From the IMG/VR virus record IMGVR_UViG_3300031647_000750, positions 128,025 to 192,024 of that record: a stretch of DNA of 64,000 bases. One strand, written 5' to 3'. The stretch comes from a virus (taxonomy: Duplodnaviria > Heunggongvirae > Uroviricota > Caudoviricetes). This document shows positions 6,461-22,134 of the stretch, in pieces. The notes under the pieces are model-generated. The model worked only from the letters and a program-made list of their open reading frames with translations, did no database searches and had not been told where the DNA came from. Numbering within the stretch: the stretch's first letter is position 1; the number at the start of each line of letters is the position of its first letter. Made by a program: the position numbers and the translations under genes.

Positions 6461-7204
6461 ATGAACGATGAGCCTACCGCATTTATATTTGATGTAGATG
6501 GCACACTTACTCCCAGTCGTTCTTTAATTGACCCAGTATTCGAAGCATGGTTTGTGGATTTTTGTACTCATAATGATGTATATATTGTCACTGGAAGTGA
6601 TCGTACAAAAACATTAGAGCAAATACACGGTACATTATATGATCTTATAGTTAAAGTATATCAATGTAGTGGTAATAATGTGTGGATCAAAGATGTAGAA
6701 ATCGAATGCAATGAATGGGTACTTGGTGACGAAGAGAGAGAATTCCTAAACGCTAAATTAGAGGAATCTGAATTTAGTATTAAGACAGGAATGCATATTG
6801 AAGATCGTCCAGGAATGGCGAATTTCAGTATAGTGGGTAGAGGTGCAACAGTGGAAGATCGCGCAGCCTATGTAGAATATGAATTTGTACATAAAGAGCG
6901 TAAACTAATTGCTGAAGCGTTCAACTTTAAATTTAAAGAGTCTGGGATAACTGCACATGTTGCAGGTGAGACGGGTCTTGATATACTACCCAATGGGAAA
7001 GACAAAGGTCAGATCATTCATGATTTTGACGAACAAACTATTTATTTCTTTGGTGATAGGATGGAAGAAGGTGGCAATGATGCTCCTCTTAAACAAGCCA
7101 TCATTGGCAGAAGAAACACAAGTGATAAGTGCTTTACAGTAGAGGGATGGGAACATACATGGAATCTACTACAGGAACTATCTAAGCAAGGATTATGTTA
7201 TTAA
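6461..7204 (+). CDS. Phosphomannomutase, eukaryotic-type HAD-IIB family
   Basis: N-terminal FDVDGTLT HAD motif. The C-terminal KDKGQ...TIYFFGDRMEEGGNDAPL matches the eukaryotic PMM signature DGWDK...IYFFGDK..GGNDHEI. Confidence 0.65.
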   Translation: MNDEPTAFIFDVDGTLTPSRSLIDPVFEAWFVDFCTHNDVYIVTGSDRTKTLEQIHGTLYDLIVKVYQCSGNNVWIKDVEIECNEWVLGDEEREFLNAKLEESEFSIKTGMHIEDRPGMANFSIVGRGATVEDRAAYVEYEFVHKERKLIAEAFNFKFKESGITAHVAGETGLDILPNGKDKGQIIHDFDEQTIYFFGDRMEEGGNDAPLKQAIIGRRNTSDKCFTVEGWEHTWNLLQELSKQGLCY

Positions 7205-7263: not shown

Positions 7264-7557
7264 ATGGCAATTGAACAAAACGATAGATCATTTAGTAAGA
7301 TTTTTGATGAGATCGACATACAAACTATACCTCCCAAATATATACAAGCAATCATCCTTACATTAGTAGGTGGTGAGAAGATAGAAATATCAGATGAAAT
7401 GCTAGATTCTATTACATCGGCAGAAGATGTATTCGCAGGAATCGAGCGAGAAGATGTCATGAACGTTGATATTGCTCTTGATTATGAAGCAATCGAATAT
7501 GATGTAAGCACCGATGTGAAGAGCGTGCTAGACGGTCTATTCGGCAATCATGACTGA
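7264..7557 (+). CDS. Hypothetical acidic protein
   Basis: ORF. Confidence 0.4.
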   Translation: MAIEQNDRSFSKIFDEIDIQTIPPKYIQAIILTLVGGEKIEISDEMLDSITSAEDVFAGIEREDVMNVDIALDYEAIEYDVSTDVKSVLDGLFGNHD

Positions 7558-8206
7558 TAGTGCAACCAGAATATGGATGTGCGGTATACCCGGATCTAAA
7601 TGGTCTGGAATAGATATGCATATGCGTCAAGTGTTACCATGTGATCAGACTGATGAATCAGATGAACGCACATGTTATCATAGAGCGTATTCACCAACCG
7701 ATACTAACAACGGACATCGTGGTAGTTATTGGGGACCAGGAATGGGATGTGGTGAAGATTGGATAGACTTCAATTTTATGGATAAATCAAAAATAATCAA
7801 CGACATAGATACAGTATTCACTGGTACTGGTTACAAAATAATAAAAGATCATTTCTTGGCTAGACAATTTAATCTAGATTACGTGTGGAATAATTTTTCT
7901 GGTGATTATATAGTTCTTGTATATAGAGAACCACAGAAATCATTTGCATGGTGGTCAGAAGTTATGGATTTTGGCGAGGGACATTATCCAGATTATGCGC
8001 CTGGATATACTGATTATAATACAATGAGAAAGTTGCTGTGGACTGAATCTGCAAAGATAACAGACTTCGCAGTTCGTAAAGATATGAATTTCTCACTATA
8101 TAACAATCAAGCATTCCAATCAATTGATGGATTTGCTTGGAAAACGGCTAATAAACTTGACATTATGACCAATGACACATATATATCTGTAAAGCGAATA
8201 CCATAA
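7550..8206 (+). CDS. Hypothetical protein. The N-terminal GIPGSKWSG is weakly reminiscent of a sulfotransferase PAPS-binding loop.
   Basis: ORF; the motif resemblance alone is not decisive. Confidence 0.35.
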   Translation: MTDSATRIWMCGIPGSKWSGIDMHMRQVLPCDQTDESDERTCYHRAYSPTDTNNGHRGSYWGPGMGCGEDWIDFNFMDKSKIINDIDTVFTGTGYKIIKDHFLARQFNLDYVWNNFSGDYIVLVYREPQKSFAWWSEVMDFGEGHYPDYAPGYTDYNTMRKLLWTESAKITDFAVRKDMNFSLYNNQAFQSIDGFAWKTANKLDIMTNDTYISVKRIP

Positions 8207-8910
8207 TGTCAAGTCCGTTTAAAACACCTTGGCACTTTGATAAATTTCGCACAGATGAAGAAGGTGAGTATGTTAAGATTGTTGGAATAGTCAATGGTGA
8301 CTGGACAACAGAGATAGATCATGCTCGTTCAAAAGACTTCAATGTTCAAAATTATAATGAACAGCGTTATGAACATGCTGCTAACAAAAAAAGTAAAAAC
8401 CATATAGAAGAAGATAAAGAGAATCCTGATGGTAAACCTGGATCTACTATGTTTCGTAAAATTAATTACGATAAGTTCCCTAGCGAGTTCCCAAAATTAA
8501 ATGCGATCACAGATTTATTACAACTTGATAAAGATGAAAAGTTAACATGTAAGTTCAATGAGCAGTTCCCTAACGATCAACTTATGTGGCATATTGATAA
8601 CTTGCCGGGAAACCCACGTAAAGAGCGTGTGATAGATAATCCCGAATTCAAGCATTCAAACGACAATAAAATACGCTTCTTGATCACATTAGAAGATTGG
8701 GAACCAGGACAAGTCTTTCAGTTTGGTAATAGAGTATACACCCAATGGAAAGCAGGTACTATATTTACATGGGAATGGAGTACATTGCCTCATTTAACAT
8801 GGAATGGTAGTTGGTCAAAGCGTCCTTGTTTACAGATCACAGGTACAGCAACACCATCAACATGGGATATTGTGCGTAACGGTAATGCAGATACCATCTA
8901 TAACATATAA
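8206..8910 (+). CDS. Hypothetical protein
   Basis: ORF translationally coupled to the upstream gene (ATAATG). Confidence 0.4.
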   Translation: MSSPFKTPWHFDKFRTDEEGEYVKIVGIVNGDWTTEIDHARSKDFNVQNYNEQRYEHAANKKSKNHIEEDKENPDGKPGSTMFRKINYDKFPSEFPKLNAITDLLQLDKDEKLTCKFNEQFPNDQLMWHIDNLPGNPRKERVIDNPEFKHSNDNKIRFLITLEDWEPGQVFQFGNRVYTQWKAGTIFTWEWSTLPHLTWNGSWSKRPCLQITGTATPSTWDIVRNGNADTIYNI

Positions 8911-8948: not shown

Positions 8949-10382
8949 ATGACAGAAAAGAAATTACCATCAGATACGTTTTGTATTCTACCTTGGATAC
9001 ATTTGAGTACTCGCCCAGACGGCAGTATGAGAGTATGTTGTACAGCAAATGCAAGTAGTGTTGGTGCAACAAATGATAAAGTTCACGGTGGGCGAGTTGG
9101 CATTGTTAAGACAGATGATGGTAAGCCTGCAAACCTAAACAACAGTGACTTGTCTAGTGCATGGAACAATAGTTACATGCGTGGTGTACGTCAACAAATG
9201 CTTGCAGGAGAAAAGCCTGCTAGTTGTTTGAAATGTTACAAAGAAGAAGATGCAGGACATCGATCTAAGCGACAGTGGGAAACCCAGTACTGGATGCGTG
9301 ATGGAATTGATGTTGATGAACTTGTTAAAGAAACATATGAAGACGGTTCAACTGATTCAAAACTACGATACATTGATATCCGTATGGGTACTAAATGCCA
9401 ACTTGGTTGCGTTATGTGTAGTCCACACGATTCATCAGGATGGGTAAAAGATTGGAATAAGTTGTATCCACAGATTACCAATGAGTCACTAAAAGAAACA
9501 ATGTCTTGGGATGATAAAGGCAAGCAGTTTGGTGCTAATTATAACTGGCATAAAAACAACCCACAGTTTTGGGAACAATTTTATGCTCAAATTCCATTCA
9601 TGCGTCAACTATACTTTGCAGGCGGCGAATCGACGGTTATCGAAGAGCATTATGAAATCCTAGATAAAGTTATTGAAATGGGTTATGCATCTCAGATTGA
9701 GTTGCGTTACAACAGTAATGGCATTGAATTGCCTGATCGTCTACTAGAGCAATGGAAGCATTTCCAAAAGGTACGTTTCCATTATAGTATTGACAGTATT
9801 GGTGAAATGAATGATTATATTCGTTACCCAAGTGAATGGTCACATCAACTTGCAATGTTTGAGCGTCTTGATACACAGACTTCTAACAACGTAGAGATTA
9901 CAATCGCGTGTGCAGTTAACGCACTAAACATTCACTACATTCCAGACTTCCTTAAATGGAAACTGCAATCAGACTTGAAGAAGACAAACATGTGGCCCTT
10001 TGGCGCTGGTGGCATTAACTATCACTTTGTATACTGGCCAGGACATTTGAATGTCAAGGTATTGCCAGATGAGTTCTTAGACAAAACCGAAGCGAAGTAT
10101 GAAGAGTTCATTGCATGGTGGAAAGAGAATTGGGAACTAGGTGTTCCAAGTTGGCACAAGGGTAAAGTAGATTATCAGAAATGGGAAGATGCTGAATATG
10201 GCATCAAGCGTTTACGTGGTATGATTAGTTTTGCTCGTAGTGAAGATTGGAGTCAGCGATTACCAGAGTTTAGAGAATACATTAACAAACTAGACGAGAT
10301 GCGCGGCACCGATTTCAGAAAAACATTTGCAGACATGGCTTACTTATTAGACGAGCCTACAGAGGACAATGATAGTGACTGA
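8949..10382 (+). CDS. Radical SAM enzyme, long form (paralog A), with an N-terminal RxCC motif and a central CxxxCxxC motif
   Basis: KCQLGCVMC is a C-x3-C-x2-C motif; FAGGESTV is a GGE motif; the N-terminal LPWIH..DGSMRVCC is shared with paralog B. Confidence 0.7.
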   Translation: MTEKKLPSDTFCILPWIHLSTRPDGSMRVCCTANASSVGATNDKVHGGRVGIVKTDDGKPANLNNSDLSSAWNNSYMRGVRQQMLAGEKPASCLKCYKEEDAGHRSKRQWETQYWMRDGIDVDELVKETYEDGSTDSKLRYIDIRMGTKCQLGCVMCSPHDSSGWVKDWNKLYPQITNESLKETMSWDDKGKQFGANYNWHKNNPQFWEQFYAQIPFMRQLYFAGGESTVIEEHYEILDKVIEMGYASQIELRYNSNGIELPDRLLEQWKHFQKVRFHYSIDSIGEMNDYIRYPSEWSHQLAMFERLDTQTSNNVEITIACAVNALNIHYIPDFLKWKLQSDLKKTNMWPFGAGGINYHFVYWPGHLNVKVLPDEFLDKTEAKYEEFIAWWKENWELGVPSWHKGKVDYQKWEDAEYGIKRLRGMISFARSEDWSQRLPEFREYINKLDEMRGTDFRKTFADMAYLLDEPTEDNDSD

Positions 10383-10923
10383 TGTAATACCAGTATTAAT
10401 TGCGTTAGAAGTGGAATTGCCCTATGAATTACCGACACCATATGTTAAAATAGTAACAGGTGTCGGTAAGATCAAAGCGACAATGGCAGCAATGGAAGCA
10501 GTATTTAAGTACAATCCTCATACCATTATCAATATGGGTACTGCGGGCAGTTTAGATCCTGATTTAGCACTAGGTGTACATGAAGTTAGTACCGTAGGTC
10601 AACGAGATATGGATGCATCGCCTTTAGGTTGGAAAGTAGGACAGACTCCGTTCACTGGTGAATTATGGATAGATCTAAAACTTAGTGGTGTTTCATTGAC
10701 TAGTGGTGATAACTTTGTCACAAGTCAGCCACCATTGAGTAGTACACTGGTTGATATGGAAGCATATGGTATTGCAATGGTATGCAAAAAGTATAAAGTT
10801 ATCTTTGATTGCTATAAGTACGTATCAGACTTTGCAGATGAAGATTCAACTACAGACTGGGAACAGAATTGCTCCGATGGTGCAAATGAATTCATGAAAA
10901 TATTATCAAATCGTAGCGAGTAA
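10369..10923 (+). CDS. 5'-methylthioadenosine/S-adenosylhomocysteine/5'-deoxyadenosine nucleosidase (Pfs/MtnN, PNP_UDP_1 family)
   Basis: TGVGKIKATMAAMEAV...INMGTAGSL and MEAYGIAMVCKKY align with Pfs GIGKVNAA..INTGSAGGL and EMEAAAIAQV. Confidence 0.6.
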   Translation: MIVTDVIPVLIALEVELPYELPTPYVKIVTGVGKIKATMAAMEAVFKYNPHTIINMGTAGSLDPDLALGVHEVSTVGQRDMDASPLGWKVGQTPFTGELWIDLKLSGVSLTSGDNFVTSQPPLSSTLVDMEAYGIAMVCKKYKVIFDCYKYVSDFADEDSTTDWEQNCSDGANEFMKILSNRSE

Positions 10924-10926
10924 ATA

Positions 10927-12492
10927 ATGTTAGATGTTGTCATGTTGGCGTATGGTGAACCAAACGCTGATCAAAATTTCAAAAGAATACAGAAATTAGC
11001 ACCCAATGCGAAGAGGGTAGATAATGTCGTCGGGATTTTAGAGGCACATCAAGCAGCAGCAAAATTGGCAACTACTGATAATTTTTATGTAGTAGATGCT
11101 GACGCGGTGTTATCTGAGCATTTTAATTTCTCATTCACACCTGATATCATTAAAGAATCGTATCCGGGTGTGAATGAATCAAGTTGTGTATTCGTATGGC
11201 AGAGTGTTAATGCAGTCAATGGATTGATTTATGGTTATGGTGGAGTAAAGTTATTCCCTAGACATAAGTTATTGAATGCGAAATCATTTCAGATAGATAT
11301 GACCACAACAATAGATGCACCATTAGTAGTGAAGCAACAAATATCTAATATAACCGAATTCAATACAGATGAATTCAGTACATGGCGCAGTGCATTCCGT
11401 GAGTGTACAAAACTAGCATCTAACCCCACTCCAGATATGGATGATCGATACAGATTAGATGTATGGTGTACTCGTGGAGATAGCAGTGCCCATGGAAAAT
11501 ATGCTATAATGGGTGCTAGACAAGGACGAGAGTTCGGTGCATTTTACAAAAATGATAAGAAAACTCTAGATAAAATAAACGATTTCACTTGGTTAACCAC
11601 TACATTTGACAAGTCATCAGTGCATACAATAGATCAGCATCACCCAATTCATTTATCATGGTTTCATGGACTAGAAGAATATTTTACATTGTCATCCGTA
11701 GAATCATACTATGCAGTATTTATTAAACTAAAGAATGCACTGGTATACGGTGATAACTGGGGCATTCGCGATCTTATTTTAGAAGAAGTAAATATAGGTA
11801 AGAATGAAGACACTGAACTTTATGTTAATGTAATACTTCAATCATTATTAATAGATGATTATGTAATACCAGATCATCAAGTATTGGAATATATTAATCG
11901 CAATATTAATGATAATTTTATATATGGATTGATGAAATTGTCTGACCCATCGCATGGTAATATTGATCTAGTAGATTTTATCACACGTGATTCGATGATA
12001 GGCAAGTCTTGGATGATTGAAGAATTAAGTAAGACAACGTTGGAACCATCTGATGTTGTAATATTGGGTGGTAACATATGCACCCATTCATCTATGTTAA
12101 TTAATAATTATGAAACAATTGAATCTATACTTAGTGTGGATATAGATCATAAGACAACAGAGTATGCTCGTTTGTTAAATCATATAGCAGAATCTGACGA
12201 ATTATTCAGTGCACAAACCAATGATGTATCTGATATAATATGGGATGAATCATCTCTGCCTGATTTATTGATAAACACTAGTTGCGCACATATGGATGAT
12301 ACATGGTTTGACAATATACCAGATACTGATGATACTTTGATAGTAATACAGACAAATGATTTTTCAGATAATATGAACTGCGTTAAAGATCTGTCTACCG
12401 CCATGACTAAATACCAAATGAAAGAAGTATTATTTAGTGGTGAACAAAGCACACAGTTATATAATAGATTTATGATTATAGGAATCAAGTAA
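10927..12492 (+). CDS. Two-domain protein: N-terminal GT-A (family 2-like) glycosyltransferase-like domain fused to a conserved C-terminal Rossmann-like (methyltransferase-like) domain
   Basis: N-terminal VVMLAYGEP...VVDADA (DxD). The C-terminal 150 aa are paralogous to the C-terminus of ORF 33512 (VILGGNICTHS / NTSCAHMDD / RFMIIGIK). Confidence 0.5.
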   Translation: MLDVVMLAYGEPNADQNFKRIQKLAPNAKRVDNVVGILEAHQAAAKLATTDNFYVVDADAVLSEHFNFSFTPDIIKESYPGVNESSCVFVWQSVNAVNGLIYGYGGVKLFPRHKLLNAKSFQIDMTTTIDAPLVVKQQISNITEFNTDEFSTWRSAFRECTKLASNPTPDMDDRYRLDVWCTRGDSSAHGKYAIMGARQGREFGAFYKNDKKTLDKINDFTWLTTTFDKSSVHTIDQHHPIHLSWFHGLEEYFTLSSVESYYAVFIKLKNALVYGDNWGIRDLILEEVNIGKNEDTELYVNVILQSLLIDDYVIPDHQVLEYINRNINDNFIYGLMKLSDPSHGNIDLVDFITRDSMIGKSWMIEELSKTTLEPSDVVILGGNICTHSSMLINNYETIESILSVDIDHKTTEYARLLNHIAESDELFSAQTNDVSDIIWDESSLPDLLINTSCAHMDDTWFDNIPDTDDTLIVIQTNDFSDNMNCVKDLSTAMTKYQMKEVLFSGEQSTQLYNRFMIIGIK

Positions 12493-13805
12493 TGAACGAT
12501 GACGATATAAAGAACAATGACACAGATAATGGGTTTTGCGCACTGCCATTTGTACAATATAGTACATTCAATGGGGGTCGTTATCGATTATGTTGTATGG
12601 CAAAGGAACCTAGTGAACTTATTAATCAAGAAGAACTAGGCATAGATGGAACATGGAATCATGATTACATTCGTAGTGTTCGTGAGCGTATGGCTACGGG
12701 CGAATGGCTACCAGAGTGTATAGAATGTAAAAGATTAGAACGTAACGATATTATAAGTTCTCGTCAATGGGAAAACTATTCATGGAAAGATCAGGTTCCA
12801 GATATTGTAGCATTGGCAAGTGCAAATGATTGGAATATAGAACAGCCTCTACAATTTGATTTTAGATTAGGTAATTTGTGTAATCTACAATGTCAGATGT
12901 GTAACAAAGAAGCATCGCATTTAGTAAGTGTTGAGCGTGCCAATATGATTGCAACAGATTTGGGTCCCAAATCTCCTAACTTAGATAGATATGATTGGGA
13001 CAATAATATTGCTAATAAAAAGAAAGCGATAATTCAGCCTGGCATCGATTGGGATAGTTTTGATAAGATGCTGCCATATGCACAGACGATTAAAATGATT
13101 GGCGGCGAACCAACTGTTGTATCTGATATGTTCAAGTTGCTAGACAGAGCAACTGAATCCGGATACGCAAAAAATATTACATTATCGTTCTACACGAACA
13201 TCACCAATATGCAAGATAGATGGTTGAAGCAATTTAGTCAGTTTAAGCAAGTTGTTGTAAATTGCTCATTAGAGGGCATGGGTGATATGAATGATTATTT
13301 ACGTCCGCCATCGCAGTGGGATTCAGTATGGGAAAATTTTGATAAGTTAGTAAAGTATTCAAATACATCAGAAGGAAAGAACATTCGTGTACGTGTCACT
13401 ACGGTGAATCAAGTAACAAACGCGTTGCATTTGGTTCCATTCTGGAGATTTATGCACGATTATCAACAGACTAATGACCGTACCATCGGCATGAGTACGA
13501 ATCAATTGGTAGAACCTGAATATTACTCAATGGCGCATAGTCCCCAATGGTTGCGTGATGAACAGAAATCACAGATACTAGAATTTTTAGAAGAGATAAA
13601 AGATAGTCCTCATTATGAAGATTATTCACGTCCGTTAATGGAAGCATTGCATTTTGGCGAAGATCCAGAAACCAAGTATGATCGTGGATTTATGAGGGAT
13701 TATGTTCAAGTAACAGAAAACTATGATAAGCATCGCGGACATGATGTGATGTCAGTAGCACCTGAATTTAGCCGAATTAAATCAGATTTAGAACTTGACA
13801 AGTAA
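12492..13805 (+). CDS. Radical SAM enzyme, long form (paralog B)
   Basis: LGNLCNLQCQMC is a C-x3-C-x2-C motif; MIGGEPTV is present; the N-terminal LPFVQY..GGRYRLCC is shared with paralog A. Confidence 0.7.
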   Translation: MNDDDIKNNDTDNGFCALPFVQYSTFNGGRYRLCCMAKEPSELINQEELGIDGTWNHDYIRSVRERMATGEWLPECIECKRLERNDIISSRQWENYSWKDQVPDIVALASANDWNIEQPLQFDFRLGNLCNLQCQMCNKEASHLVSVERANMIATDLGPKSPNLDRYDWDNNIANKKKAIIQPGIDWDSFDKMLPYAQTIKMIGGEPTVVSDMFKLLDRATESGYAKNITLSFYTNITNMQDRWLKQFSQFKQVVVNCSLEGMGDMNDYLRPPSQWDSVWENFDKLVKYSNTSEGKNIRVRVTTVNQVTNALHLVPFWRFMHDYQQTNDRTIGMSTNQLVEPEYYSMAHSPQWLRDEQKSQILEFLEEIKDSPHYEDYSRPLMEALHFGEDPETKYDRGFMRDYVQVTENYDKHRGHDVMSVAPEFSRIKSDLELDK

Positions 13806-13813
13806 GGAAATAA

Positions 13814-14482
13814 ATGACATCAACTAATATGGAATATTTAACTGAGATAGATTTTGCATTAACCACATATTGTCAAGCACGATGTAGAAGTTGTGCTAGA
13901 ACGAATCAACATACTGGTGAAAAAGAAGATTGGTTAGAACTCAAGCATATGAATCTAGATGTGTTTAAACGAACTCTTGCAGCATCTACTAATATAAAGT
14001 ATAATCTAATTGAGTTTTGTGGCGAGTTGGGCGATCCCATGATGCATCCACAAGTTGACAAATTTATAGAAACTGCATTAGAATATGCACCATCAATATT
14101 AATATCAACAAATGGTGCGCTTAGAAATGCAAACTGGTATAAGACGATAGCAGAAAAATACACAGACGATGTCTTTATAAATTGGGCAATTGATGGAGCA
14201 ACACATGACACCAATTGGAAGTATAGAGAAGGTGTTGATTTTAATAAAGCTTTTGAAAATATGAAAACTCACACTCAATCAGGTGGGGATGGTGAATGGC
14301 GATATTTAATATTTGAGTGGAATTGGCATGAAATACCGCTAGCACGTCAAATGGCAAAAGAGATTGGAATTAAAATTATTTTTTGCTTCAATAATAGAGA
14401 TTTTGGATTAATAACACCAGATTCTAGATTGGATGCAGAAAAATTATTAATAGGAGTGAGTCCAGATGACATCAAAGGGTAA
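13814..14482 (+). CDS. Radical SAM enzyme, short form (paralog C), N-terminal catalytic part only
   Basis: TTYCQARCRSC is a C-x3-C-x2-C motif and EFCGELGDPMMHP is present. The product ends where paralogs D and E continue into a (W/Y)PCC domain. Confidence 0.6.
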   Translation: MTSTNMEYLTEIDFALTTYCQARCRSCARTNQHTGEKEDWLELKHMNLDVFKRTLAASTNIKYNLIEFCGELGDPMMHPQVDKFIETALEYAPSILISTNGALRNANWYKTIAEKYTDDVFINWAIDGATHDTNWKYREGVDFNKAFENMKTHTQSGGDGEWRYLIFEWNWHEIPLARQMAKEIGIKIIFCFNNRDFGLITPDSRLDAEKLLIGVSPDDIKG

Positions 14483-14876
14483 ATATAATATTGAATGTCA
14501 ATCATTCGAAGCTCTAAATGAATTTACTAACCTCCCTGTAAGAAAATGGGAAGTAACACCAGAAGGAAGAGTGTGGCCATGTTGTTATTTTGCAAATGCA
14601 TGGGATAGACGACATATGATGAGGGCAGATGAATTGGGTCCCGATGAAGATTCTAGTGAAGAAGATTTTCATAATGTAAATGGTGAATCAGCAGAATTAT
14701 TGAATGATGCTAGAATGATGACTATAATAAATGAAGATCCTGATTGGAATAGTTTAGAACATCACTCTATAGAAGAAATCATAGCGCACGAAGTATTCCA
14801 CAGTTACATCTGGACTGAAGGATGGAATAGCGATAATCCTGCGATATTGTGTGTTAATAATTGTAATAAGTGTTGA
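14466..14876 (+). CDS. C-terminal WPCC-motif domain homologous to the C-termini of radical SAM paralogs D and E, encoded as a separate ORF overlapping 13814..14482 by 17 nt
   Basis: TPEGRVWPCCYFANAWD aligns with DGKVYPCCMFYA (22211) and WGTVWPCCHISNHA (37417). Confidence 0.5.
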   Translation: MTSKGKYNIECQSFEALNEFTNLPVRKWEVTPEGRVWPCCYFANAWDRRHMMRADELGPDEDSSEEDFHNVNGESAELLNDARMMTIINEDPDWNSLEHHSIEEIIAHEVFHSYIWTEGWNSDNPAILCVNNCNKC

Positions 14877-16238: not shown

Positions 16239-16312
16239 GCTCGGTTAGCTCAAAGGTAGAGCCATCGCTCGATAAGCGATAGACGAAGGATCGTTACCTT
16301 CACTGAGTACCA
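16239..16312 (+). tRNA. tRNA, anticodon GAT (Ile) with atypical C33 and atypical T-loop ATCGTTA
   Basis: Hand-folded cloverleaf: acceptor GCTCGGT/ACTGAGT with G-U pairs, D-stem GCTC/GAGC, anticodon stem ATCGC/GCGAT, encoded CCA. A -10 TATAAT lies immediately upstream. Confidence 0.45.
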
Positions 16313-16359
16313 TTTTAAAATTGGAGATTCACTGCCATAAGTGTGAACTATAAAATTAC

Positions 16360-16436
16360 GGATTGTTAGCATAGTGGCTTAATGCAGCACCTTCATACGG
16401 TGAAGATCAATGGTTCAAATCCATTACAATCCACCA
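16360..16436 (+). tRNA. tRNA-Met (CAT)
   Basis: Acceptor GGATTGT/ACAATCC, D-stem GCAT/ATGC, anticodon loop TTCATAC, T-arm AATGG-TTCAAAT-CCATT, CCA encoded. Confidence 0.7.
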
Positions 16437-16444
16437 CAAGTTTT

Positions 16445-16520
16445 ACAGGGTATAGCTGAGTTTGGTTTAGCACGGGCCTTGGATGCCTGAGACGAGGGTT
16501 CAAGTCCTTCTTCCCTGACC
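16445..16520 (+). tRNA. tRNA-Pro (TGG)
   Basis: Anticodon stem CGGGC/GCCTG with loop CTTGGAT; T-arm GAGGG-TTCAAGT-CCTTC; acceptor with one mismatch; CCA encoded; D-arm irregular. Confidence 0.5.
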
Positions 16521-16574
16521 ATTAGAGATAGTGTATATCTCGTGTCTTTTATTAGATATAAAAATACAATTTAA

Positions 16575-16648
16575 TACTCTTGCCAGTGGAACTGGCAGTT
16601 GGGTTTCGACCCCGACTTGCGAATGTTCGATTCATTCCAGGAGTGCCA
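16575..16648 (+). tRNA. tRNA, probable anticodon TCG (Arg)
   Basis: Acceptor ACTCTTG/CAGGAGT; T-arm GAATG-TTCGATT-CATTC; anticodon loop TTTCGAC; D region atypical. Confidence 0.4.
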
Positions 16649-16794
16649 AATTTACTATGCTGGCTGCCGTCTACGTTTCCGGAAACTGACGTTAAATATT
16701 GAGGTTCAACTCCTCGGATACATTAAGGAAGGCTTGGTGTATCGCGTTACAGGCAACGTAAGGGTTCGACTCCCAAATAGTAAACCGCTTTGAT

Positions 16795-16872
16795 GGTGAT
16801 CGTAGCATAACTGGCAAATGCCCAAGGTTGTGAACCTTGTAGATCCGGGATCATACCCCGGCGATCACACCA
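16795..16872 (+). tRNA. tRNA-His (GTG) with extra G at -1
   Basis: G-1 plus acceptor GTGATCG/CGATCAC; D-stem GCAT/ATGC; anticodon stem CAAGG/CCTTG with loop TTGTGAA; T-stem CCGGG/CCCGG with atypical loop ATCATAC; CCA encoded. Confidence 0.65.
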
Positions 16873-16882
16873 CTTATTTTAT

Positions 16883-16968
16883 GGAAGATGATCTAGTCTG
16901 GGACTAGGATGACTTGCTAAGTCAATCGGCTCGAAAGGGTTTGGGATCGTAACCTACTTCTTCCGCCA
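16883..16968 (+). tRNA. Class II tRNA, probable Ser (GCT)
   Basis: Acceptor GGAAGAT/TTCTTCC; D-stem CTAG/CTAG; anticodon loop TTGCTAA; 86-nt length with a long variable region; CCA encoded. Confidence 0.45.
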
Positions 16969-16974
16969 CTTTTA

Positions 16975-17051
16975 GCGCGGTTGCCAGAGTAGCCAACGGA
17001 GCGGCTTGCAAACCCGTACAACCATCGGTGCAAATCCGATACCGCGCTCCA
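16975..17051 (+). tRNA. tRNA (possibly Cys, GCA); anticodon arm not confidently folded
   Basis: Perfect acceptor GCGCGGT/ACCGCGC; T-arm ATCGG-TGCAAAT-CCGAT; CCA encoded. Confidence 0.45.
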
Positions 17052-17099
17052 ATTTTAAGTTCCGTTCGTCTATCGGTTAGGACATACGGGAAGAATTAC

Positions 17100-17176
17100 A
17101 TCCCCATAGATTACGTTGGTTAAATCACTAGACTTTCACTCTAGCGAACCGGGATCGTCGCCCGGTGGGGATACCA
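17100..17176 (+). tRNA. tRNA-Glu (TTC)
   Basis: Perfect acceptor ATCCCCA/TGGGGAT; D-stem GATT/AATC; anticodon stem CTAGA/TCTAG with loop CTTTCAC; T-stem CCGGG/CCCGG with atypical loop ATCGTCG; CCA encoded. Confidence 0.7.
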
Positions 17177-17181
17177 TTTTT

Positions 17182-17280
17182 GTCTTATAGTTTAATATGG
17201 CATTTGGGTATGACGATACTCAAGAATAGAATCTTGCAATCAGCGAGAGATACAGGTATTGCATAATCCTGTTAAGACAA
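17182..17280 (+). ncRNA. tRNA-like element (~99 nt) with perfect 7-bp terminal pairing TGTCTTA/TAAGACA and stem ACAGG/CCTGT; interior not canonical
   Basis: Terminal helices seen; no CCA. Confidence 0.2.
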
Positions 17281-17292
17281 ATTATTTTTAAT

Positions 17293-17367
17293 GCATCGGT
17301 AGTGTCAATGGAAACACGCGAGATTCCAAACTTCGTATTCTAGGTTCAAGTCCTAGTCGGTGTGCCA
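17293..17367 (+). tRNA. tRNA-Trp (CCA)
   Basis: T-arm CTAGG-TTCAAGT-CCTAG; anticodon loop TTCCAAA; D-stem GTGT/ACAC; acceptor pairs partly through G-U; CCA encoded. Confidence 0.55.
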
Positions 17368-17479
17368 CATTAAGGTAGTTAAGCAGTTGAGAACCATATC
17401 GTGAAACCTACGGGGGAGTTGGTATTGGAACAAATAGTTCGCTGCTCAAGAGGGTGTTGACCTCTACTGCCACCCTTTT

Positions 17480-17578
17480 TATCTTGTTGCTTAATTAAAG
17501 CAGTGGAATCCCTCATACATCGTCAATGCTATGAGAATGATGTTTCCATGCATGTAGGTGCAAATCCTACCAAGATAA
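17480..17578 (+). ncRNA. tRNA-like element (~99 nt) with acceptor-like TATCTTG/CAAGATA and canonical T-arm GTAGG-TGCAAAT-CCTAC but a long unresolved interior (possible intron or long variable arm)
   Basis: Terminal helix and T-arm seen; interior not folded. Confidence 0.25.
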
Positions 17579-17589
17579 ATTATTTTTAA

Positions 17590-17675
17590 GCAGGATACGA
17601 CTCATGGTGAGACAGCGGATTGTAAATCCGTAGCGTGTAATGCGCAAGTAGGTTCAATTCCTTCATCCTGCACCA
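17590..17675 (+). tRNA. tRNA-Tyr (GTA), class II
   Basis: Perfect acceptor GCAGGAT/ATCCTGC; anticodon stem GCGGA/TCCGT with loop TTGTAAA; variable stem-loop; CCA encoded. Confidence 0.6.
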
Positions 17676-17682
17676 CTTTTAA

Positions 17683-17760
17683 GCCGCAGTGACCCAAATA
17701 GGTAGAGGTGCTGGTTTTAGAAACCAGATGTTGTAGGTTCGATCCCTACTTGCGGTACCA
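17683..17760 (+). tRNA. tRNA with anticodon TAG (would read CUA, Leu) but short (class I-like) variable region
   Basis: Anticodon stem CTGGT/ACCAG with loop TTTAGAA; T-arm GTAGG-TTCGATC-CCTAC; acceptor GCCGCAG/TTGCGGT with terminal G-U pairs; CCA encoded. Confidence 0.45.
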
Positions 17761-17795
17761 ACATAAATACAACCATATATAGGAGAAACCATATA

Positions 17796-18119
17796 ATGGC
17801 AATTACATTATCTAAAGAAGCATCAGAGCGCATATCAGATTACATGATCAACAGAGGACCTACGTACGGTGTACGTGTAGGTGTAAGAACAACAGGTTGT
17901 TCTGGTCTTGCATACATAGTAGAGTTTGTCGATAATATTGACGAGAATGATACAGTCTTTGTATCAAATGAAATAAGTATTGTAGTAGATCCTAAAGGTT
18001 TAACATACCTTGACGGTACTGAGTTGGATTATGGACGTGATGGACTCAACGAAGGATTCAGATTTAATAATCCAAACGCAAAAGACGAATGCGGTTGTGG
18101 CGAAAGTTTCACTGTATAA
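17796..18119 (+). CDS. A-type Fe-S cluster carrier (IscA/ErpA/HesB family)
   Basis: 107 aa with the conserved Cys triad (C..GCSG ... C-G-C-G C-terminal motif ECGCGESF). Confidence 0.75.
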   Translation: MAITLSKEASERISDYMINRGPTYGVRVGVRTTGCSGLAYIVEFVDNIDENDTVFVSNEISIVVDPKGLTYLDGTELDYGRDGLNEGFRFNNPNAKDECGCGESFTV

Positions 18120-18137
18120 TATTTTATTAAATAAGTG

Positions 18138-18166
18138 TTGACAAGAGAAGTATAATGCGTTACAAT
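18138..18166 (+). promoter_or_regulatory. Promoter ATAAGTGTTGACAAG-17-TACAAT
   Basis: Third copy of the extended -35 family. Confidence 0.5.
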
Positions 18167-18277
18167 AGCACAACGTTTTGAGAAAGACATAAAGTTTTTT
18201 GATAAATAAATAAGAAGTTTATGCTGACGTATTTCAAGTCACTAATTTAGAAATAGTTTAAAATAGTTTAAAATAGT

Positions 18278-18310
18278 AGTTGACAATAGTTAATAAGTTT
18301 GATATAATAG
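18278..18310 (+). promoter_or_regulatory. Promoter TAGTTGACAATAG-N-GATATAAT driving small-RNA candidate 1
   Basis: Consensus hexamers; similar to the promoter at 18465. Confidence 0.45.
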
Positions 18311-18314
18311 TAGA

Positions 18315-18450
18315 ACAAGTTGAGAGATCAACACGCTCTTTAAAAATAGTTTGTTTTAATATGTATTATTGTTGATGAAAGTAGGGCTTGATGTTGGAAG
18401 TAGAACCATTAAGGTGTCTGACGATAGTTAACAATAATATATTTTAAAAT
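18315..18450 (+). ncRNA. Candidate small RNA 1 (diverged member of a repeat family). It ends in ...GACGATAGTTAAC followed by A/T-rich sequence.
   Basis: No ORF; follows a promoter; shares 3' motif CGATAGTTAA and an internal GGAAGTAG..AAGG core with units at 18556 and 18715. Confidence 0.3.
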
Positions 18451-18464
18451 GAATTAAAATAGTT

Positions 18465-18498
18465 ATTGACATTGTTATGAAACTTTGTTATACTATTA
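18465..18498 (+). promoter_or_regulatory. Promoter TTATTGACATTG-N-TTATACT driving small-RNA candidates 2a and 2b
   Basis: Consensus-like -35 and -10. Confidence 0.45.
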
Positions 18499-18555
18499 AA
18501 GTGTTCTTTTGTATACACATTAGGTAGATACTGATTTTAGTAGGTATGGTGATTC

Positions 18556-18646
18556 GTGCTGAACGTTGAAGGGAATCGCTAAATGACAAGGGACTTGCTG
18601 TGTGGGATTAATCATCCCTGTCGTAGACAAGCGGTTGTTAAATAAT
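18556..18646 (+). ncRNA. Candidate structured small RNA 2a (core GTGCTGAACGTTGAAGGGAATCGCTAAATGACAAGGG...GGGATTAATCATCCC hairpin)
   Basis: Non-coding; near-duplicate of 18715-18812 with compensatory-looking changes. Confidence 0.35.
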
Positions 18647-18714
18647 GTGTATGCAAAAGTGTATTTTAATATATGCTATTGGGTAGAGCCAGATCGTAGT
18701 AAGCATAAGGGTGC

Positions 18715-18812
18715 GTGCTGAAATTTGAAGGGAATCGCTGAACGACAATAGGTTTAATGTATACAGACTAATCCCTGTATATTGGAACCAACGATAGTTA
18801 AACGATAGTATA
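18715..18812 (+). ncRNA. Candidate structured small RNA 2b (core GTGCTGAAATTTGAAGGGAATCGCTGAACGACAATAGG...)
   Basis: Paralog of 18556-18646; ends CGATAGTTAAACGATAG plus A/T-rich sequence. Confidence 0.35.
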
Positions 18813-18842
18813 TTTTAAAGTTTATTTTAAATAAAGTTTAAT

Positions 18843-18918
18843 TCCTGAATAGCTCAGTTGGTAGAGCAGTAGACTGTTAATCTATTTGTCGTTGGTTCGA
18901 GCCCAACTTCAGGAGCCA
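18843..18918 (+). tRNA. tRNA-Asn (GTT)
   Basis: Canonical cloverleaf: acceptor TCCTGAA/TTCAGGA, D-stem GCTC/GAGC, anticodon loop CTGTTAA, T-arm GTTGG-TTCGAGC-CCAAC, CCA. Confidence 0.85.
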
Positions 18919-19018
18919 TTTTCATAGTTAGTTTATTCCTTCTTACAGGATATCCTGAGAAGATACGAAGAAAACTGATAGCATCACATCTGAAACAATG
19001 ACGATGTGGTGCGGTTGC

Positions 19019-19092
19019 GCCCGATTAGTTAAGTGGTATAACAATTGCCTTGTAAGCATTAGTTGGTGGTTCGATTCCATCATTGGGCACCA
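19019..19092 (+). tRNA. tRNA-Thr (TGT)
   Basis: Acceptor GCCCGAT/ATTGGGC; D-stem GTTA/TAAC; anticodon loop CTTGTAA; T-loop TTCGATT; CCA. Confidence 0.7.
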
Positions 19093-19235
19093 TTTTTTAA
19101 AGTAGTATTAAGTAGTTACCCTAGCGGCTCATAAGAGAGAGTCGGTTCATTGCATATAGTTACAGTTATGTGTAGTCAGCGAAATGTGCATCTGTAAGTG
19201 CATGTAGACTCGGCTAACTTCTTAATATTATTTTT

Positions 19236-19311
19236 GCTGACGTAGCTCACTCGGGAGAGCGCGACCCTGTCAAGGTCGAGGTAGTGGGATCGAAACCCAT
19301 CGTTGGCGCCA
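19236..19311 (+). tRNA. tRNA-Asp (GTC)
   Basis: D-stem GCTC/GAGC; anticodon stem CGACC/GGTCG with loop CTGTCAA; T-stem GTGGG/CCCAT with loop ATCGAAA; CCA. Confidence 0.8.
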
Positions 19312-19357
19312 CATTTAAGATCAAATTTCTTGACCAGAAGTTTGAAACAACGTTTTA

Positions 19358-19448
19358 TAGAGAGTTGGCAGAGTGGTCGAATGCACTGGTCTTGAAAACC
19401 AGCAAGGGTTCATAGCCCTTCGAGAGTTCGAACCTCTCACTCTCTGCC
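19358..19448 (+). tRNA. tRNA-Ser (TGA), class II
   Basis: Perfect acceptor AGAGAGT/ACTCTCT; 3-bp D-stem; anticodon stem CTGGT/ACCAG with loop CTTGAAA; variable hairpin AAGGG/CCCTT; T-arm GAGAG-TTCGAAC-CTCTC; CCA. Confidence 0.85.
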
Positions 19449-19516
19449 ATTTTAGATAGTGCTAAATAGATAGTTCGTCAGATGATGTAACTATTTTATA
19501 GGAATAAACCATGTAT

Positions 19517-19591
19517 AATATAATTTGTCCCATTAGCATAATGGATAGTGCAGTGGATTTCTACTCCATAGATCAGGGTTCGACTCCTTGA
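19517..19591 (+). tRNA. tRNA-Arg (TCT)
   Basis: Perfect acceptor GTCCCAT/ATGGGAC; anticodon loop TTTCTAC; T-arm CAGGG-TTCGACT-CCTTG; CCA; -10 TATAAT upstream. Confidence 0.8.
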
Positions 19592-19711
19592 TGGGACACC
19601 AATTTTAAAGAGCGTACAGTATCATCGCTTGTCAAGTAGATACTCAGGTAACATCAGGCATAGCCCCTCATGATGTTATTAGGTGAGGGGGTGAGACAAG
19701 CACATTTTTAT

Positions 19712-19781
19712 ATCATCATTTGCCAATTGGTAAGGTTAGGCGAAGTAGTCGTTACTGGTTCGATTCCAGTTGGTGATACCA
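19712..19781 (+). ncRNA. tRNA-like element (70 nt) with a good acceptor and T-arm (ACTGG-TTCGATT-CCAGT) and CCA but a compressed, unresolved D/anticodon region
   Basis: Partial fold only. Confidence 0.3.
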
Positions 19782-19789
19782 ATTTTAAT

Positions 19790-19861
19790 GCGGGATGCTA
19801 AGGTATGCACTCCGGGCTCATAACCCGCGAGGTTGAGTTTCGATTACTCTTTCCGCTACCA
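19790..19861 (+). ncRNA. tRNA-like element with a CAT anticodon loop (CTCATAA) but an imperfect acceptor and T-stem
   Basis: Anticodon hairpin CCGGG/CCCGC is recognisable; other arms weak. Confidence 0.3.
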
Positions 19862-19866
19862 CATTA

Positions 19867-19944
19867 GGGCCTATAGCTTAGTTGGTTTAAAGCAGACGAC
19901 TCATAATCGTAAGATCCTTGGTTCAAGTCCAAGTAGGCCCACCA
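19867..19944 (+). tRNA. tRNA with CAT anticodon (elongator Met or Ile2-lysidine type)
   Basis: Perfect acceptor GGGCCTA/TAGGCCC; D-stem GCTT/AAGC; anticodon loop CTCATAA; T-arm CTTGG-TTCAAGT-CCAAG; CCA. Confidence 0.8.
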
Positions 19945-20081
19945 CTATAATTTATTTTTGTATAAGATTTGTCTTATACATTTACAGAAATCGCTTCTGT
20001 TATCGTGACATACAACGACAACGATAGCGTTACACTCGTAACAAATACATGTTAATTATGCGAGTTGACGATAACAGAGGC

Positions 20082-20156
20082 GGCGCTATTCGCGAGTATC
20101 GTATAATGGTTATTACGGGAGGTTTCCAACCTTTTGATGTCAGTTCGATTCTGACT
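20082..20156 (+). tRNA. tRNA-Gly (TCC)
   Basis: Perfect acceptor GCGAGTA/TACTCGC; anticodon loop TTTCCAA; T-arm GTCAG-TTCGATT-CTGAC; CCA. Confidence 0.85.
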
Positions 20157-20178
20157 ACTCGCTCCAATATGTAAGAAG

Positions 20179-20264
20179 TAAAGAACATGCCTTGGTGGTG
20201 GAATTAGGTATACACATCAGATTTAAAATCTGACGACTTCGGTCATGCGGGTTCAAGTCCCGCT
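20179..20264 (+). tRNA. tRNA-Leu (TAA), class II
   Basis: Anticodon stem TCAGA/TCTGA with loop TTTAAAA; variable hairpin GAC-TTCG-GTC; T-arm GCGGG-TTCAAGT-CCCGC; CCA. Confidence 0.85.
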
Positions 20265-20296
20265 CAAGGCACCAAAATTAAAATAGAAGATGTAAT

Positions 20297-21028: not shown

Positions 21029-21073
21029 GTTATTTTTATAGTATAAATAATACTATAGACAGGGAGAAAGATA

Positions 21074-21748: not shown

Positions 21749-21822
21749 CAGAACACGTTACATAGTGTATAATAATTTATTAGATAAATAAAGTAGTAAG
21801 TATGAAGTGGTTACATAATCGT

Positions 21823-21898
21823 GGGGATATAGCTCAGTTGGGAGAGCGACTGCCTTGCACGCAGTAGGTCGTAGGTTCGATCCCTATTATCTCCACCA
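21823..21898 (+). tRNA. tRNA-Ala (TGC), copy 1
   Basis: GGGGATATAGCTCAGTTGGGAGAGC...CTTGCAC...GGTTCGATCC...TATCTCCACCA canonical. Confidence 0.9.
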
Positions 21899-21947
21899 TT
21901 ATGTGACTATTAGTCTAATAAATAAAGTAGCAAGTATGAAGTACAAT

Positions 21948-22023
21948 GGGGATATAGCTCAGTTGGGAGAGCGACTGCCTTGCACGCAGTAGGTCGTAGG
22001 TTCGATCCCTATTATCTCCACCA
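21948..22023 (+). tRNA. tRNA-Ala (TGC), copy 2, identical to copy 1 and part of a ~120-bp segmental duplication
   Basis: Identical sequence; the upstream flank AAATAAAGTAG(T/C)AAGTATGAAGT is also duplicated. Confidence 0.9.
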
Positions 22024-22058
22024 TTTTAAAATTAAAGAGATATCAAATTTCTTTAAAA

Positions 22059-22134
<76 letters not shown>

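Follow-up and report, generated by a model that had tools for sequence, protein, structure and literature searches.

Five predicted radical SAM-twitch enzymes of a marine jumbo phage and their putative role in sugar tailoring

The window analysed here, a 64,000-nucleotide stretch (positions 128,025 to 192,024) of the viral IMG/VR record IMGVR_UViG_3300031647_000750, includes five radical S-adenosylmethionine (rSAM) loci, each with a CxxxCxxC motif, a GGE-type motif and a second cysteine motif. The loci named A, B and C lie within nucleotides 8949 to 14876, the interval under which a first-pass annotation of the sequence had filed all five; D and E are located outside it, at 22.2 kb and 37.4 kb. 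The second motif can be considered the signature of a twitch domain, which is found N-terminal to the rSAM core in A and B, C-terminal in D and E, and as a separate polypeptide in C. We propose that these rSAM-twitch enzymes, together with a set of support genes, tailor sugars or nucleotide-sugars that are then transferred by glycosyltransferases of the GT-A fold. Taken as a whole this account is, on balance, probable; those of its parts that are independent of the substrate stand on much firmer ground. The loci are as follows, with residue numbers referring to each protein.

8949-10382, + strand: rSAM A, 477 amino acids (aa); CxxxCxxC at 150 (C150/C154/C157), GGE at 225-227; C12...G25-x4-C30C31...C93xxC96.
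12492-13805, + strand: rSAM B, 437 aa; CxxxCxxC at 130; C16...C34C35...C76xxC79.
13814-14482, + strand: rSAM C1, 222 aa; CxxxCxxC at 20; rSAM core alone, without auxiliary domain.
14466-14876, + strand: C2, a stand-alone twitch, 136 aa; C11...WPC39C40...C129xxxC133xxC136.
22211-23236, + strand: rSAM D, core then C-terminal twitch, 341 aa; CxxxCxxC at 15; C236...YPC253C254...C312xxxC316.
37417-38475, + strand: rSAM E, core then C-terminal twitch, 352 aa; CxxxCxxC at 20; C263...WPC282C283...C345xxxC349.

The GGE-type motifs of the five loci are FAGGES, MIGGEP, GELGDPMMHP, GTSGDPLAHP and GNWGDSMMHP. Pfam Radical_SAM (PF04055) matched all five cores with E values between 5e-5 (C1) and 1e-9. The scores of B (32.9 bits), D (39.2 bits) and E (35.4 bits) are above the gathering score of 29.5 bits, and those of A (27.2 bits) and C1 (23.9 bits) are just below it; A was accepted because of its NF033640 score of 422 bits and its fold, and C1 because it is 28% identical to D and E. 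Conservation was assessed in alignments of non-identical homologues from phage and bacterial loci, 233 of the type with an N-terminal twitch (N-twitch) and 97 of the type with a C-terminal twitch (C-twitch). The CxxxCxxC motif is 100% conserved in both alignments, and G225, G226 and E227 of A are at least 90% conserved. In A, as modelled with AlphaFold (pLDDT 84.1, pTM 0.84), residues 18-28 form a beta-hairpin between C12 and C30; helices that include C93 and C96 come next, and then the barrel. Foldseek comparison of this model to the Protein Data Bank (PDB) returned rSAM structures only (SkfB, anSME, SuiB, viperins, BlsE and MoaA) with probabilities of about 1.0, all of them distant at TM-scores of 0.25-0.45. 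A sequence search of the PDB matched E to SkfB (6efn) at 8e-5 and returned nothing for A or D. The motifs thus lie in rSAM domains, and the NCBIfam scan of the five proteins found no match to NrdG, QueE or PflA, nor to the RaSEA model. The first-pass identification of five reading frames with CxxxCxxC and a GGE-type motif was therefore borne out by motifs, Pfam, NCBIfam and the fold of A, and the five loci are predicted to encode rSAM enzymes rather than to match the family by chance.

The additional cysteines of all five loci, which the first-pass annotation had also noticed as a shared second motif, follow the pattern C-x(10-27)-G-x4-C-C ... C-x2-3-C. The Pfam family SPASM (PF13186) falls exactly on the CC motif (A, 12-97; C2, 26-55; D, 238-270; E, 263-349), with its cutoff of 21.5 reached only marginally by A (21.6 bits) and E (22.1 bits). 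Among the N-twitch homologues C12, C93 and C96 are 100% conserved, C30 97% and C31, the second cysteine of the doublet, 87%; among the C-twitch homologues C263, C282, C345 and C349 are 100% conserved and C283 94%. The doublet is reduced to a single cysteine (WPCH) in one C2 orthologue. Motif reading and the homologue alignments showed that the CX2CX5CX3C block of the full SPASM domain is absent and that just four to five auxiliary cysteines are conserved. The invariance of four auxiliary cysteines across the family indicates a twitch with one cluster. The extra CC motif, which had been taken for a mark of a possibly undescribed family, is thus the known SPASM/twitch signature of an auxiliary [4Fe-4S] cluster in its single-cluster twitch form, and not a new domain. 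Furthermore, the N-terminal form is already curated as NF033640 (N_Twi_rSAM, "N-terminal twitch domain-containing radical SAM protein"; cutoff, 170 bits), which A and B match with 421.9 and 290.9 bits over its full length (model positions 1-397 and 2-396 of 398, respectively). C1, D and E do not reach this cutoff (24.9-39.1 bits) and pass no other in NCBIfam. A and B, which have the same cysteine-rich twitch N-terminal to the core as NF033640, are accordingly assigned to a curated family without characterised members, and C, D and E, which are outside it, to unclassified rSAM-twitch proteins. No relative of solved structure could be detected by sequence for NF033640.

These assignments define two subfamilies. 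A and B are 27% identical (E 1e-40) and C, D and E are 25-28% identical to one another (E 1e-24 to 1e-33), and BLAST between the two groups gave nothing significant. The placement of the cysteine motif at the N terminus of the long proteins and at the C terminus of the short ones holds across the 233 and 97 homologues. Each rSAM has its own conserved orthologues: those of A are 82-99% identical and those of B 68-87% identical in related IMG/VR phage contigs, and those of D show 44-80% identity. An IMG/VR scan for D returned only relatives of 34% identity or less. A is the best-conserved gene of its neighbourhood, with flanking genes that are 33-92% identical in related phages. On this evidence the A/B (N-terminal twitch) and C/D/E (C-terminal twitch) groups are best described as two old, separately maintained subfamilies, and not as the single, recently diversifying set of paralogs that had been suggested. 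In loci L008-L026 the identities are 82-91% for A, 68-72% for B, 75-81% for the amidinotransferase described below, 43-48% for the nucleosidase, 45-52% for ORF 5765 and 33-38% for ORF 7264. The N-twitch family is a large one, with 8,444 matching representatives at E<=1e-3 in a library clustered at 50% identity; the numbers fall to 5,326 at E<=1e-10 and to 935 at E<=1e-30. Some relatives of A, 800-1,400 aa long with two to five matched stretches (P0395, P0396, P0405, P0410 and others), appear to be fusions of two rSAM units. In related phages a C-twitch gene is usually followed by an N-twitch gene that overlaps or abuts it, and these pairs, together with the long fusions, suggest that the enzymes act in pairs.

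The locus C is split. C1 ends at 14482 and C2 starts at 14466, a 17-nucleotide overlap, and AGGAG is located nine bases 5' of the C2 ATG; C2 can be aligned with the C-terminal regions of D and E. The same split, into a core of about 210 aa and a stand-alone twitch of about 110-135 aa, is found in four other loci (L006, L018, L020 and L133) at 37-49% identity. Their junction overlaps are 22, 26, 32 and 4 nucleotides, with differing relative frames, and in all five lineages C2 comes with a purine-rich ribosome-binding site and a start codon of its own. A split that is kept across lineages with differing overlaps and frames excludes a conserved slippery site or a sequencing error. We considered a programmed frameshift or a pseudogene and rejected both on the differing junctions and independent starts. 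C1 and C2 are thus read as a genuine two-cistron arrangement, in which the auxiliary-cluster domain of C would be a separate polypeptide. The conserved division into core and stand-alone twitch offers a natural experiment on the docking of auxiliary-cluster domains.

The genes around A to C are, in order, a phosphomannomutase, three conserved genes of unknown function, A, a nucleosidase, a 521-aa protein, B, C1 and C2. The neighbours of the rSAM genes that bear on their function are listed below.

6461-7204, + strand: phosphomannomutase-family (haloacid dehalogenase-type) enzyme, PMM, in the same gene run as A; PF03332 E 2e-22, 80.6 bits.
7550-8206 and 8206-8910, + strand: two conserved genes directly 5' of A, with no Pfam, NCBIfam or PDB match.
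10369-10923, + strand: PNP_UDP_1-family nucleosidase (methylthioadenosine/S-adenosylhomocysteine (MTA/SAH)/5'-deoxyadenosine nucleosidase-like), 184 aa, with its start overlapping the end of A; PF01048 E 8e-13.
10927-12492, + strand: fusion protein of 521 aa; residues 1-235 GT-A-like, about 336-521 an "NTSCEH" domain (fam4).
33512-34762, + strand: protein with a second fam4 copy at its C terminus, 36% identical (E 8e-40) to a stand-alone fam4 of a Bdellovibrionales locus.
36356-37420, + strand: amidinotransferase, with its stop overlapping the start of E; PDB matches HsvA (5wpi, 1.3e-28), SxtG (1.8e-19) and StrB1 (1bwd, 1.9e-18).

Several of these genes are conserved in position. PMM lies upstream of A in L006 and L007, the closest relatives, too, the two genes directly 5' of A are kept in place in L006, L008-L022 and L026 at 59-92% identity, and the amidinotransferase has orthologues (75-81%) directly upstream of an E-like rSAM in 13 related phage loci. 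StrB1 is an inosamine-phosphate amidinotransferase, an aminocyclitol enzyme, and HsvA is a polyamine enzyme. A PDB sequence search returned nothing for ORF 35467, ORF 7550 or ORF 8206. The possibility that ORF 8206-8910 codes for a 2-oxoglutarate/Asp-hydroxylase-like oxygenase was unsupported, since BLAST and a home-made hidden Markov model against the Asp_Arg_Hydrox-like neighbours found nothing. The nucleosidase scored below the NCBIfam cutoffs throughout (NF004168, 96 bits with a cutoff of 129; MTA/SAH models, 51-69 bits, 51 being set against 73.8), and it showed weaker matches to the futalosine hydrolase and HpnG models.

The 521-aa protein between the nucleosidase and B had no Pfam match of its own and no PDB sequence match. 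The AlphaFold model of its residues 1-235 (pLDDT 89.5), in which D57xD59 is invariant, matched SunS, RmlT, WrtF, ppGalNAcT and A64R of the chlorovirus PBCV-1 at E values of 1e-4 to 4e-3. Nearly all the Foldseek matches are GT-A glycosyltransferases and fold-related sugar nucleotidyltransferases, with TM-scores of 0.35-0.48. Judging from this model, residues 1-235 form a GT-A-fold, glycosyltransferase-like domain with a DxD motif. A few homologues of the domain carry Pfam glycosyltransferase family 2 (GT2) domains, and a PDB profile search with it gave nothing significant. For fam4 the profile search of the PDB returned only matches at E 0.1-0.5 to Rossmann-fold proteins, and its identification as a SAM methyltransferase was unsupported. 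The protein with the second fam4 copy (33512-34762) has matches in 54 places across the fetched loci. Viral as well as bacterial loci combine the GT-A and fam4 domains with A-type rSAMs. The GT-A domain is present as four or five tandem copies in L028 and L029, and fusions of two GT-A domains, with or without fam4, reach 500-900 aa.

The window also codes for a set of proteins for Fe-S cluster assembly and electron transfer.

17796-18119, + strand: IscA, an A-type Fe-S carrier; TIGR02011 155 bits (cutoff 150.6).
39660-40025, + strand: ferredoxin of the 7Fe type (Fer4 plus DUF3470); PF11953 E 1.2e-10, PF00037 E 6e-9.
40582-40983, + strand: second A-type Fe-S carrier (Fe-S_biosyn); PF01521 E 3e-14.
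61655-62914, + strand: IscS-type cysteine desulfurase; phrog_12787 E 5e-144, tblastn 67-69% to genes annotated as iscS.
62960-63343, + strand: IscU Fe-S scaffold; TIGR01999 221.7 bits (cutoff 192.4).
63640-64000, + strand, running off the window: N terminus of an FNR/Fpr-like flavoprotein reductase; 59-62% to a FAD_binding_6/NAD_binding_1 protein whose gene, in L130 and L133, overlaps the start of the D orthologue.

IscU and IscA pass curated cutoffs; IscS was identified by its PHROG and tblastn matches only, and the Pfam FAD_binding_6 match of the FNR-like reading frame itself is weak (19.3 bits). HscA, HscB and IscR were not found among the scanned reading frames. IscS, IscU, the two A-type carriers, ferredoxin, the reductase and the nucleosidase could together meet all the needs of the rSAM enzymes, which are oxygen-sensitive and demand many clusters.

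Comparison with related sequences showed that this module is widespread. Thirty-five related IMG/VR loci contain it in varying copy number, with up to seven rSAM genes within 21 kb. In L008-L022 the pair formed by the amidinotransferase and E follows B directly, in the same cluster, and in relatives the E-like gene sits in the A/B cluster, where it overlaps or abuts a following A-like gene. The nucleosidase adjoins A/B in related phage loci. Two orthologues of D (53% and 44%) share with the window a downstream synteny that consists of ORFs of 116, 160 and 287 aa, ClpP, a zeta-toxin-like kinase, ClpX and IF3. Upstream, in L130 and L133, they overlap an FNR-like FAD/NAD-binding reductase, 5' of which there is either an NAD-dependent epimerase/4,6-dehydratase plus a cupin or a cupin plus a split C1/C2 pair; the Pfam matches of these neighbours are to Epimerase/GDP_Man_Dehyd and to Cupin_2. 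In the window, a tRNA array separates D from the reductase, cupin and epimerase genes that adjoin its orthologues in relatives.

The module is not restricted to phages. Orthologues of A (about 55-64% identity) are common in the chromosomes of Bdellovibrionota, predatory bacteria of the Bdellovibrio type, including complete chromosomes of 1.6-3 Mb from metagenome-assembled genomes (MAGs) and that of the cultured Bdellovibrio sp. HCB2-146. In the latter the orthologue (59%) is found with at least five Pfam GT2 genes, one Glyco_transf_7C gene and another rSAM gene within about 10 kb. The 78 loci fetched from the genome collection (L041-L118) include 180 N-twitch rSAMs in 76 loci and 87 C-twitch rSAMs in 57; fam4 domains are present in 33 of them and the GT-A domain in 26, and nearly all lack the nucleosidase. 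Other recurrent families there, according to Pfam, are GT2s, a carbamoyltransferase, short-chain dehydrogenases/reductases (SDR), and aminotransferase-like and Asp/Asn-hydroxylase-like proteins. A third rSAM family of about 380 aa with the motif FCNYRCSYCWPY, absent from the window, has 71 members in 56 of the 78 loci (e.g. L071, 17127-18272). The chromosomal location of the rSAM and glycosyltransferase module in Bdellovibrionota implies that it is not specific to viruses, so the substrate need not be a viral one as had been supposed; the module would be a shared, horizontally mobile, glycan-type pathway and not a viral invention. 

The conservation of the ligand cysteines and the gene context lead us to propose that the five rSAM enzymes are functional. 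Each would have a SAM-binding [4Fe-4S] site and one auxiliary twitch cluster held by four cysteines, and IscS, IscU and the two A-type carriers would fill the approximately ten clusters that result. Electrons would pass from NADPH through the FNR-like protein to ferredoxin and reduce the SAM cluster, and the nucleosidase would clear the inhibitory by-product 5'-deoxyadenosine, easing product inhibition. That this gene accompanies the module in phage loci and in almost none of the genome-collection loci fits generic removal of 5'-deoxyadenosine better than a step specific to the pathway. As for the substrate, the first-pass annotation had offered a nucleoside, a sugar or a peptide, and the sugar fits the context best of the three: the GT-A domain, PMM, the amidinotransferase, the epimerase and cupin genes and the GT2 genes all point to tailoring of sugars or glycans. 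The enzymes may oxidise, epimerise or deoxygenate sugars or nucleotide-sugars, or carry out C-C chemistry, in each case begun by hydrogen abstraction. Their partners would be the phosphomannomutase and the amidinotransferase and, in relatives, the 4,6-dehydratase/epimerase and the cupin; GT-A glycosyltransferases would attach the products to an acceptor, which may be a virion protein, the host envelope or DNA. There is precedent for such chemistry, as the twitch enzymes BtrN (2-deoxy-scyllo-inosamine dehydrogenase) and BlsE, and also DesII, act on sugars.

A number of points weigh against this account. Neither the N-twitch nor the C-twitch subfamily has a characterised member, the fold matches are all distant (TM-scores of 0.25-0.48), the nucleosidase scores under every curated cutoff, and we infer the service of the ferredoxin, the FNR-like protein and the ISC genes to the rSAM enzymes from co-occurrence only. 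Many of the Bdellovibrionota loci come from MAGs, and some matches in MAGs outside Bdellovibrio that are rich in rSAM genes (L093, L094 and L097-L101) may be mis-binned phage contigs. Other points favour a different substrate. Peptides are the substrates of most characterised SPASM/twitch enzymes; in fold, A is best matched by the peptide-modifying SkfB, anSME and SuiB, and the GT-A domain by the glycocin (peptide) S-glycosyltransferases SunS and ThuS. The five enzymes might accordingly be maturases that introduce cross-links, epimerisations or other changes in a peptide made on the ribosome and modified after translation (RiPP) or in a phage or host protein, with the GT-A proteins as SunS-like peptide glycosyltransferases. 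The sub-cutoff NCBIfam matches are largely to families of this kind, Asp/Asn-hydroxylase-like genes occur in related loci, and small reading frames follow C2. We nevertheless judge this explanation unlikely. None of the five proteins matched a RiPP recognition element (RRE) or PqqD domain (Pfam and NCBIfam, E<=0.1), and their scores with the RiPP maturase models are 15-32 bits, far under cutoffs of at least 265 bits. No gene for a cysteine-rich or repeated precursor was seen, in the course of work that included no systematic search for precursor genes, and the neighbours are of the nucleotide-sugar type (PMM, 4,6-dehydratase/epimerase, cupin, carbamoyltransferase and many GT2s). The location of D next to both the tRNA array and a DUF5591 protein weakly similar to ArcS, and that of E 0.5 kb upstream of a PTPS/QueD-like gene, could on the other hand hint at nucleic-acid chemistry. 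The product would then be a modified or sugar-decorated base, for example of the 7-deazaguanine/archaeosine type or bearing an amidino group, in the phage DNA, where it would counter restriction, or in the phage tRNAs. Phages use rSAM enzymes and glycosyltransferases in DNA hypermodification, the amidinotransferase overlaps E, and dCMP deaminase, MazG-like and phosphoribosyltransferase genes are present in the window. This too seems improbable to us: no QueE, QueC, FolE or DpdA/tRNA-guanine transglycosylase (TGT) was found among the scanned reading frames, no rSAM matched the QueE or RaSEA models, the QueD and ArcS scores are far under their cutoffs, the conserved partners of D in relatives are the reductase, the epimerase/dehydratase and the cupin rather than tRNA genes, and the module is chromosomal in Bdellovibrionota, beside GT2 clusters.

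The amidinotransferase, being closest to HsvA, SxtG and StrB1, also raises the question of whether the product is a diffusible small molecule, similar to an aminoglycoside or aminocyclitol or to a guanidino-polyamine. The combination of twitch rSAM, glycosyltransferase, aminotransferase-like, carbamoyltransferase and SDR genes resembles aminoglycoside clusters. Adenosylation by an rSAM could be part of such a route, the nucleosidase then removing adenine from the adduct, in the manner of HpnH and MqnE, which add the 5'-deoxyadenosyl radical to their substrates, and of HpnG and MqnB, which then remove adenine; the weaker matches of the nucleosidase to futalosine hydrolase and HpnG agree with this. 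We give this explanation little credence, as the nucleosidase is nearer to MTA/SAH nucleosidases than to HpnG/MqnB and is absent from the module as it occurs in bacteria, which fits a generic scavenger of by-products better; in addition, the tandem GT-A and GT2 genes suggest an oligo- or polysaccharide, and no export or resistance genes were identified. Finally, part of the set could have decayed, with C1/C2 a frameshifted pseudogene and some of the paralogs inactive remnants, as C consists of two overlapping reading frames and A and C1 fall just under the Pfam Radical_SAM threshold. Decay is very hard to reconcile with a split that is kept in five lineages down to 37% identity with differing junctions and a ribosome-binding site and start for each C2, with the retention of all the cluster-ligand cysteines, and with the position of A as the most conserved gene nearby (82-99%, with flanks at 33-92%).

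Within the sugar-tailoring account, a more specific version can be put forward, which is bolder and which we hold only tentatively. In it the phage would carry a self-sufficient rSAM toolkit (Fe-S assembly, the chain from NADPH through the FNR-like protein to ferredoxin, and removal of 5'-deoxyadenosine) that drives a new multi-enzyme radical pathway. N-twitch and C-twitch enzymes would work as pairs or complexes, an idea prompted by overlapping or abutting genes, by occasional fusions and by the one case of a division into core and stand-alone twitch. The pathway would build an undescribed sugar, amidino- or deoxy-modified or of high carbon number, for the virion, the host surface or DNA, and the same chemistry would serve a surface structure in Bdellovibrionota.

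The nearest precedents for the window enzymes, by analogy, may be BtrN, BlsE and DesII in function and SkfB and anSME in structure. With BtrN and BlsE, the latter also a Foldseek match, the window enzymes share an rSAM core with a single predicted auxiliary [4Fe-4S] cluster and an aminosugar- or aminocyclitol-type gene setting (amidinotransferase, glycosyltransferase and dehydratase/epimerase genes). However, there is no significant sequence similarity to BtrN, BlsE or DesII, A and B carry an N-terminal twitch, and C has its twitch as a separate protein. The peptide-modifying SPASM enzymes anSME, SkfB, SuiB and PqqE give the best structural and profile matches and share the C-x(n)-G-x4-C hairpin signature, but they have seven to eight auxiliary cysteines, whereas four to five are conserved in the window proteins, which lack the CX2CX5CX3C block, an RRE and a visible precursor peptide. 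Genes of the isc/suf type for Fe-S assembly are auxiliary metabolic genes of phages in marine viromes; here IscS, IscU and two A-type carriers are accompanied, within 64 kb, by ferredoxin, an FNR-like protein, a nucleosidase and five rSAM clients with two predicted clusters each. Variable rSAM cassettes are mentioned in passing among the glycosyltransferase and lipopolysaccharide-type genes of the host-recognition cluster of pelagimyophages, which are marine T4-like phages (PMC7029224). The phage described here belongs instead to a PA5oct-like jumbo lineage, and HTVC008M-type records gave no match to A. Literature searches returned no relevant paper on NF033640 or the N-terminal twitch, on the Bdellovibrionota rSAM cluster or on rSAM enzymes of jumbo phages, and none on a phage that has rSAM genes together with ISC, ferredoxin, FNR and nucleosidase genes. 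At the level of the system, the permuted and split twitch, the multi-rSAM glycan-type module common to jumbo phages and Bdellovibrionota, and the co-encoded support set can be considered a new variant that is experimentally tractable. The window provides a consistent genetic context for the N-twitch family, which comprises some 5,300 clusters at 50% identity (E<=1e-10) and has no assigned function. Bdellovibrio sp. HCB2-146 is a cultured organism in which the proposal can be tested, and the phage ferredoxin and FNR-like protein are candidate physiological reductants. With at least ten predicted [4Fe-4S] client sites and the machinery to fill, reduce and de-inhibit them, this one jumbo phage would be a virus that imports a whole cofactor economy.

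The window has a G+C content of about 36% and all its genes are on the + strand. For the gp44-like clamp loader (45735-46658), PA5oct-type Pseudomonas jumbo phages come first with 53% identity, followed by Phosso, RsoM2USA, XacN1 and Atu_ph07. Metagenome contigs with proteins identical or close to A reach 302 kb, relatives of D occur on contigs of 318-323 kb, and one close homologue is present in Tara Oceans data. The window is thus part of a marine jumbo phage related to the PA5oct/RsoM2USA group. Megablast of nucleotides 8949-14876 against phage records gave no match, and the region of RsoM2USA around a distant A homologue has only hypothetical-protein annotations.

The tRNA array upstream of D (16239-22134) includes 18 genes according to ARAGORN, with two each for tRNA-Ala(tgc), tRNA-Thr(tgt) and tRNA-Met(cat); an additional tRNA-like Rfam match at 17590-17672 was not called by ARAGORN. 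The DUF5591 protein, whose weak similarity is to the C-domain of archaeosine synthase ArcS, and the PTPS/QueD-like protein are encoded at 20297-21028 and 38957-39403, respectively, and both are far below their cutoffs. A 7-deazaguanine/archaeosine pathway was considered unlikely on these scores and on the absence of QueE, QueC and TGT from the scanned reading frames.

Two ClpP homologues (25033-25647 and 44617-45297), a ClpX-type ATPase (29750-30979), whose name is taken from the Pfam record of its syntenic counterpart in L133, and IF3 (30969-31475) make up an unusual proteostasis and translation set for a phage. The dCMP deaminase is a further gene of the window. A homologue of the SbmA/BacA family of inner-membrane transporters (49950-51017; E 3.5e-80), phosphoribosyl pyrophosphate synthetase (53805-54776), a phosphoribosyltransferase (40025-40546) and a MazG/PRA-PH-like pyrophosphohydrolase (41735-42091) are genes of nucleotide metabolism and uptake with no evident link to the rSAM genes. 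The 176-aa ORF 42530-43060 matches only a fragment of the NTPase domain of DNA polymerase III alpha (E 5.6e-9) and may be a split or truncated polymerase gene.

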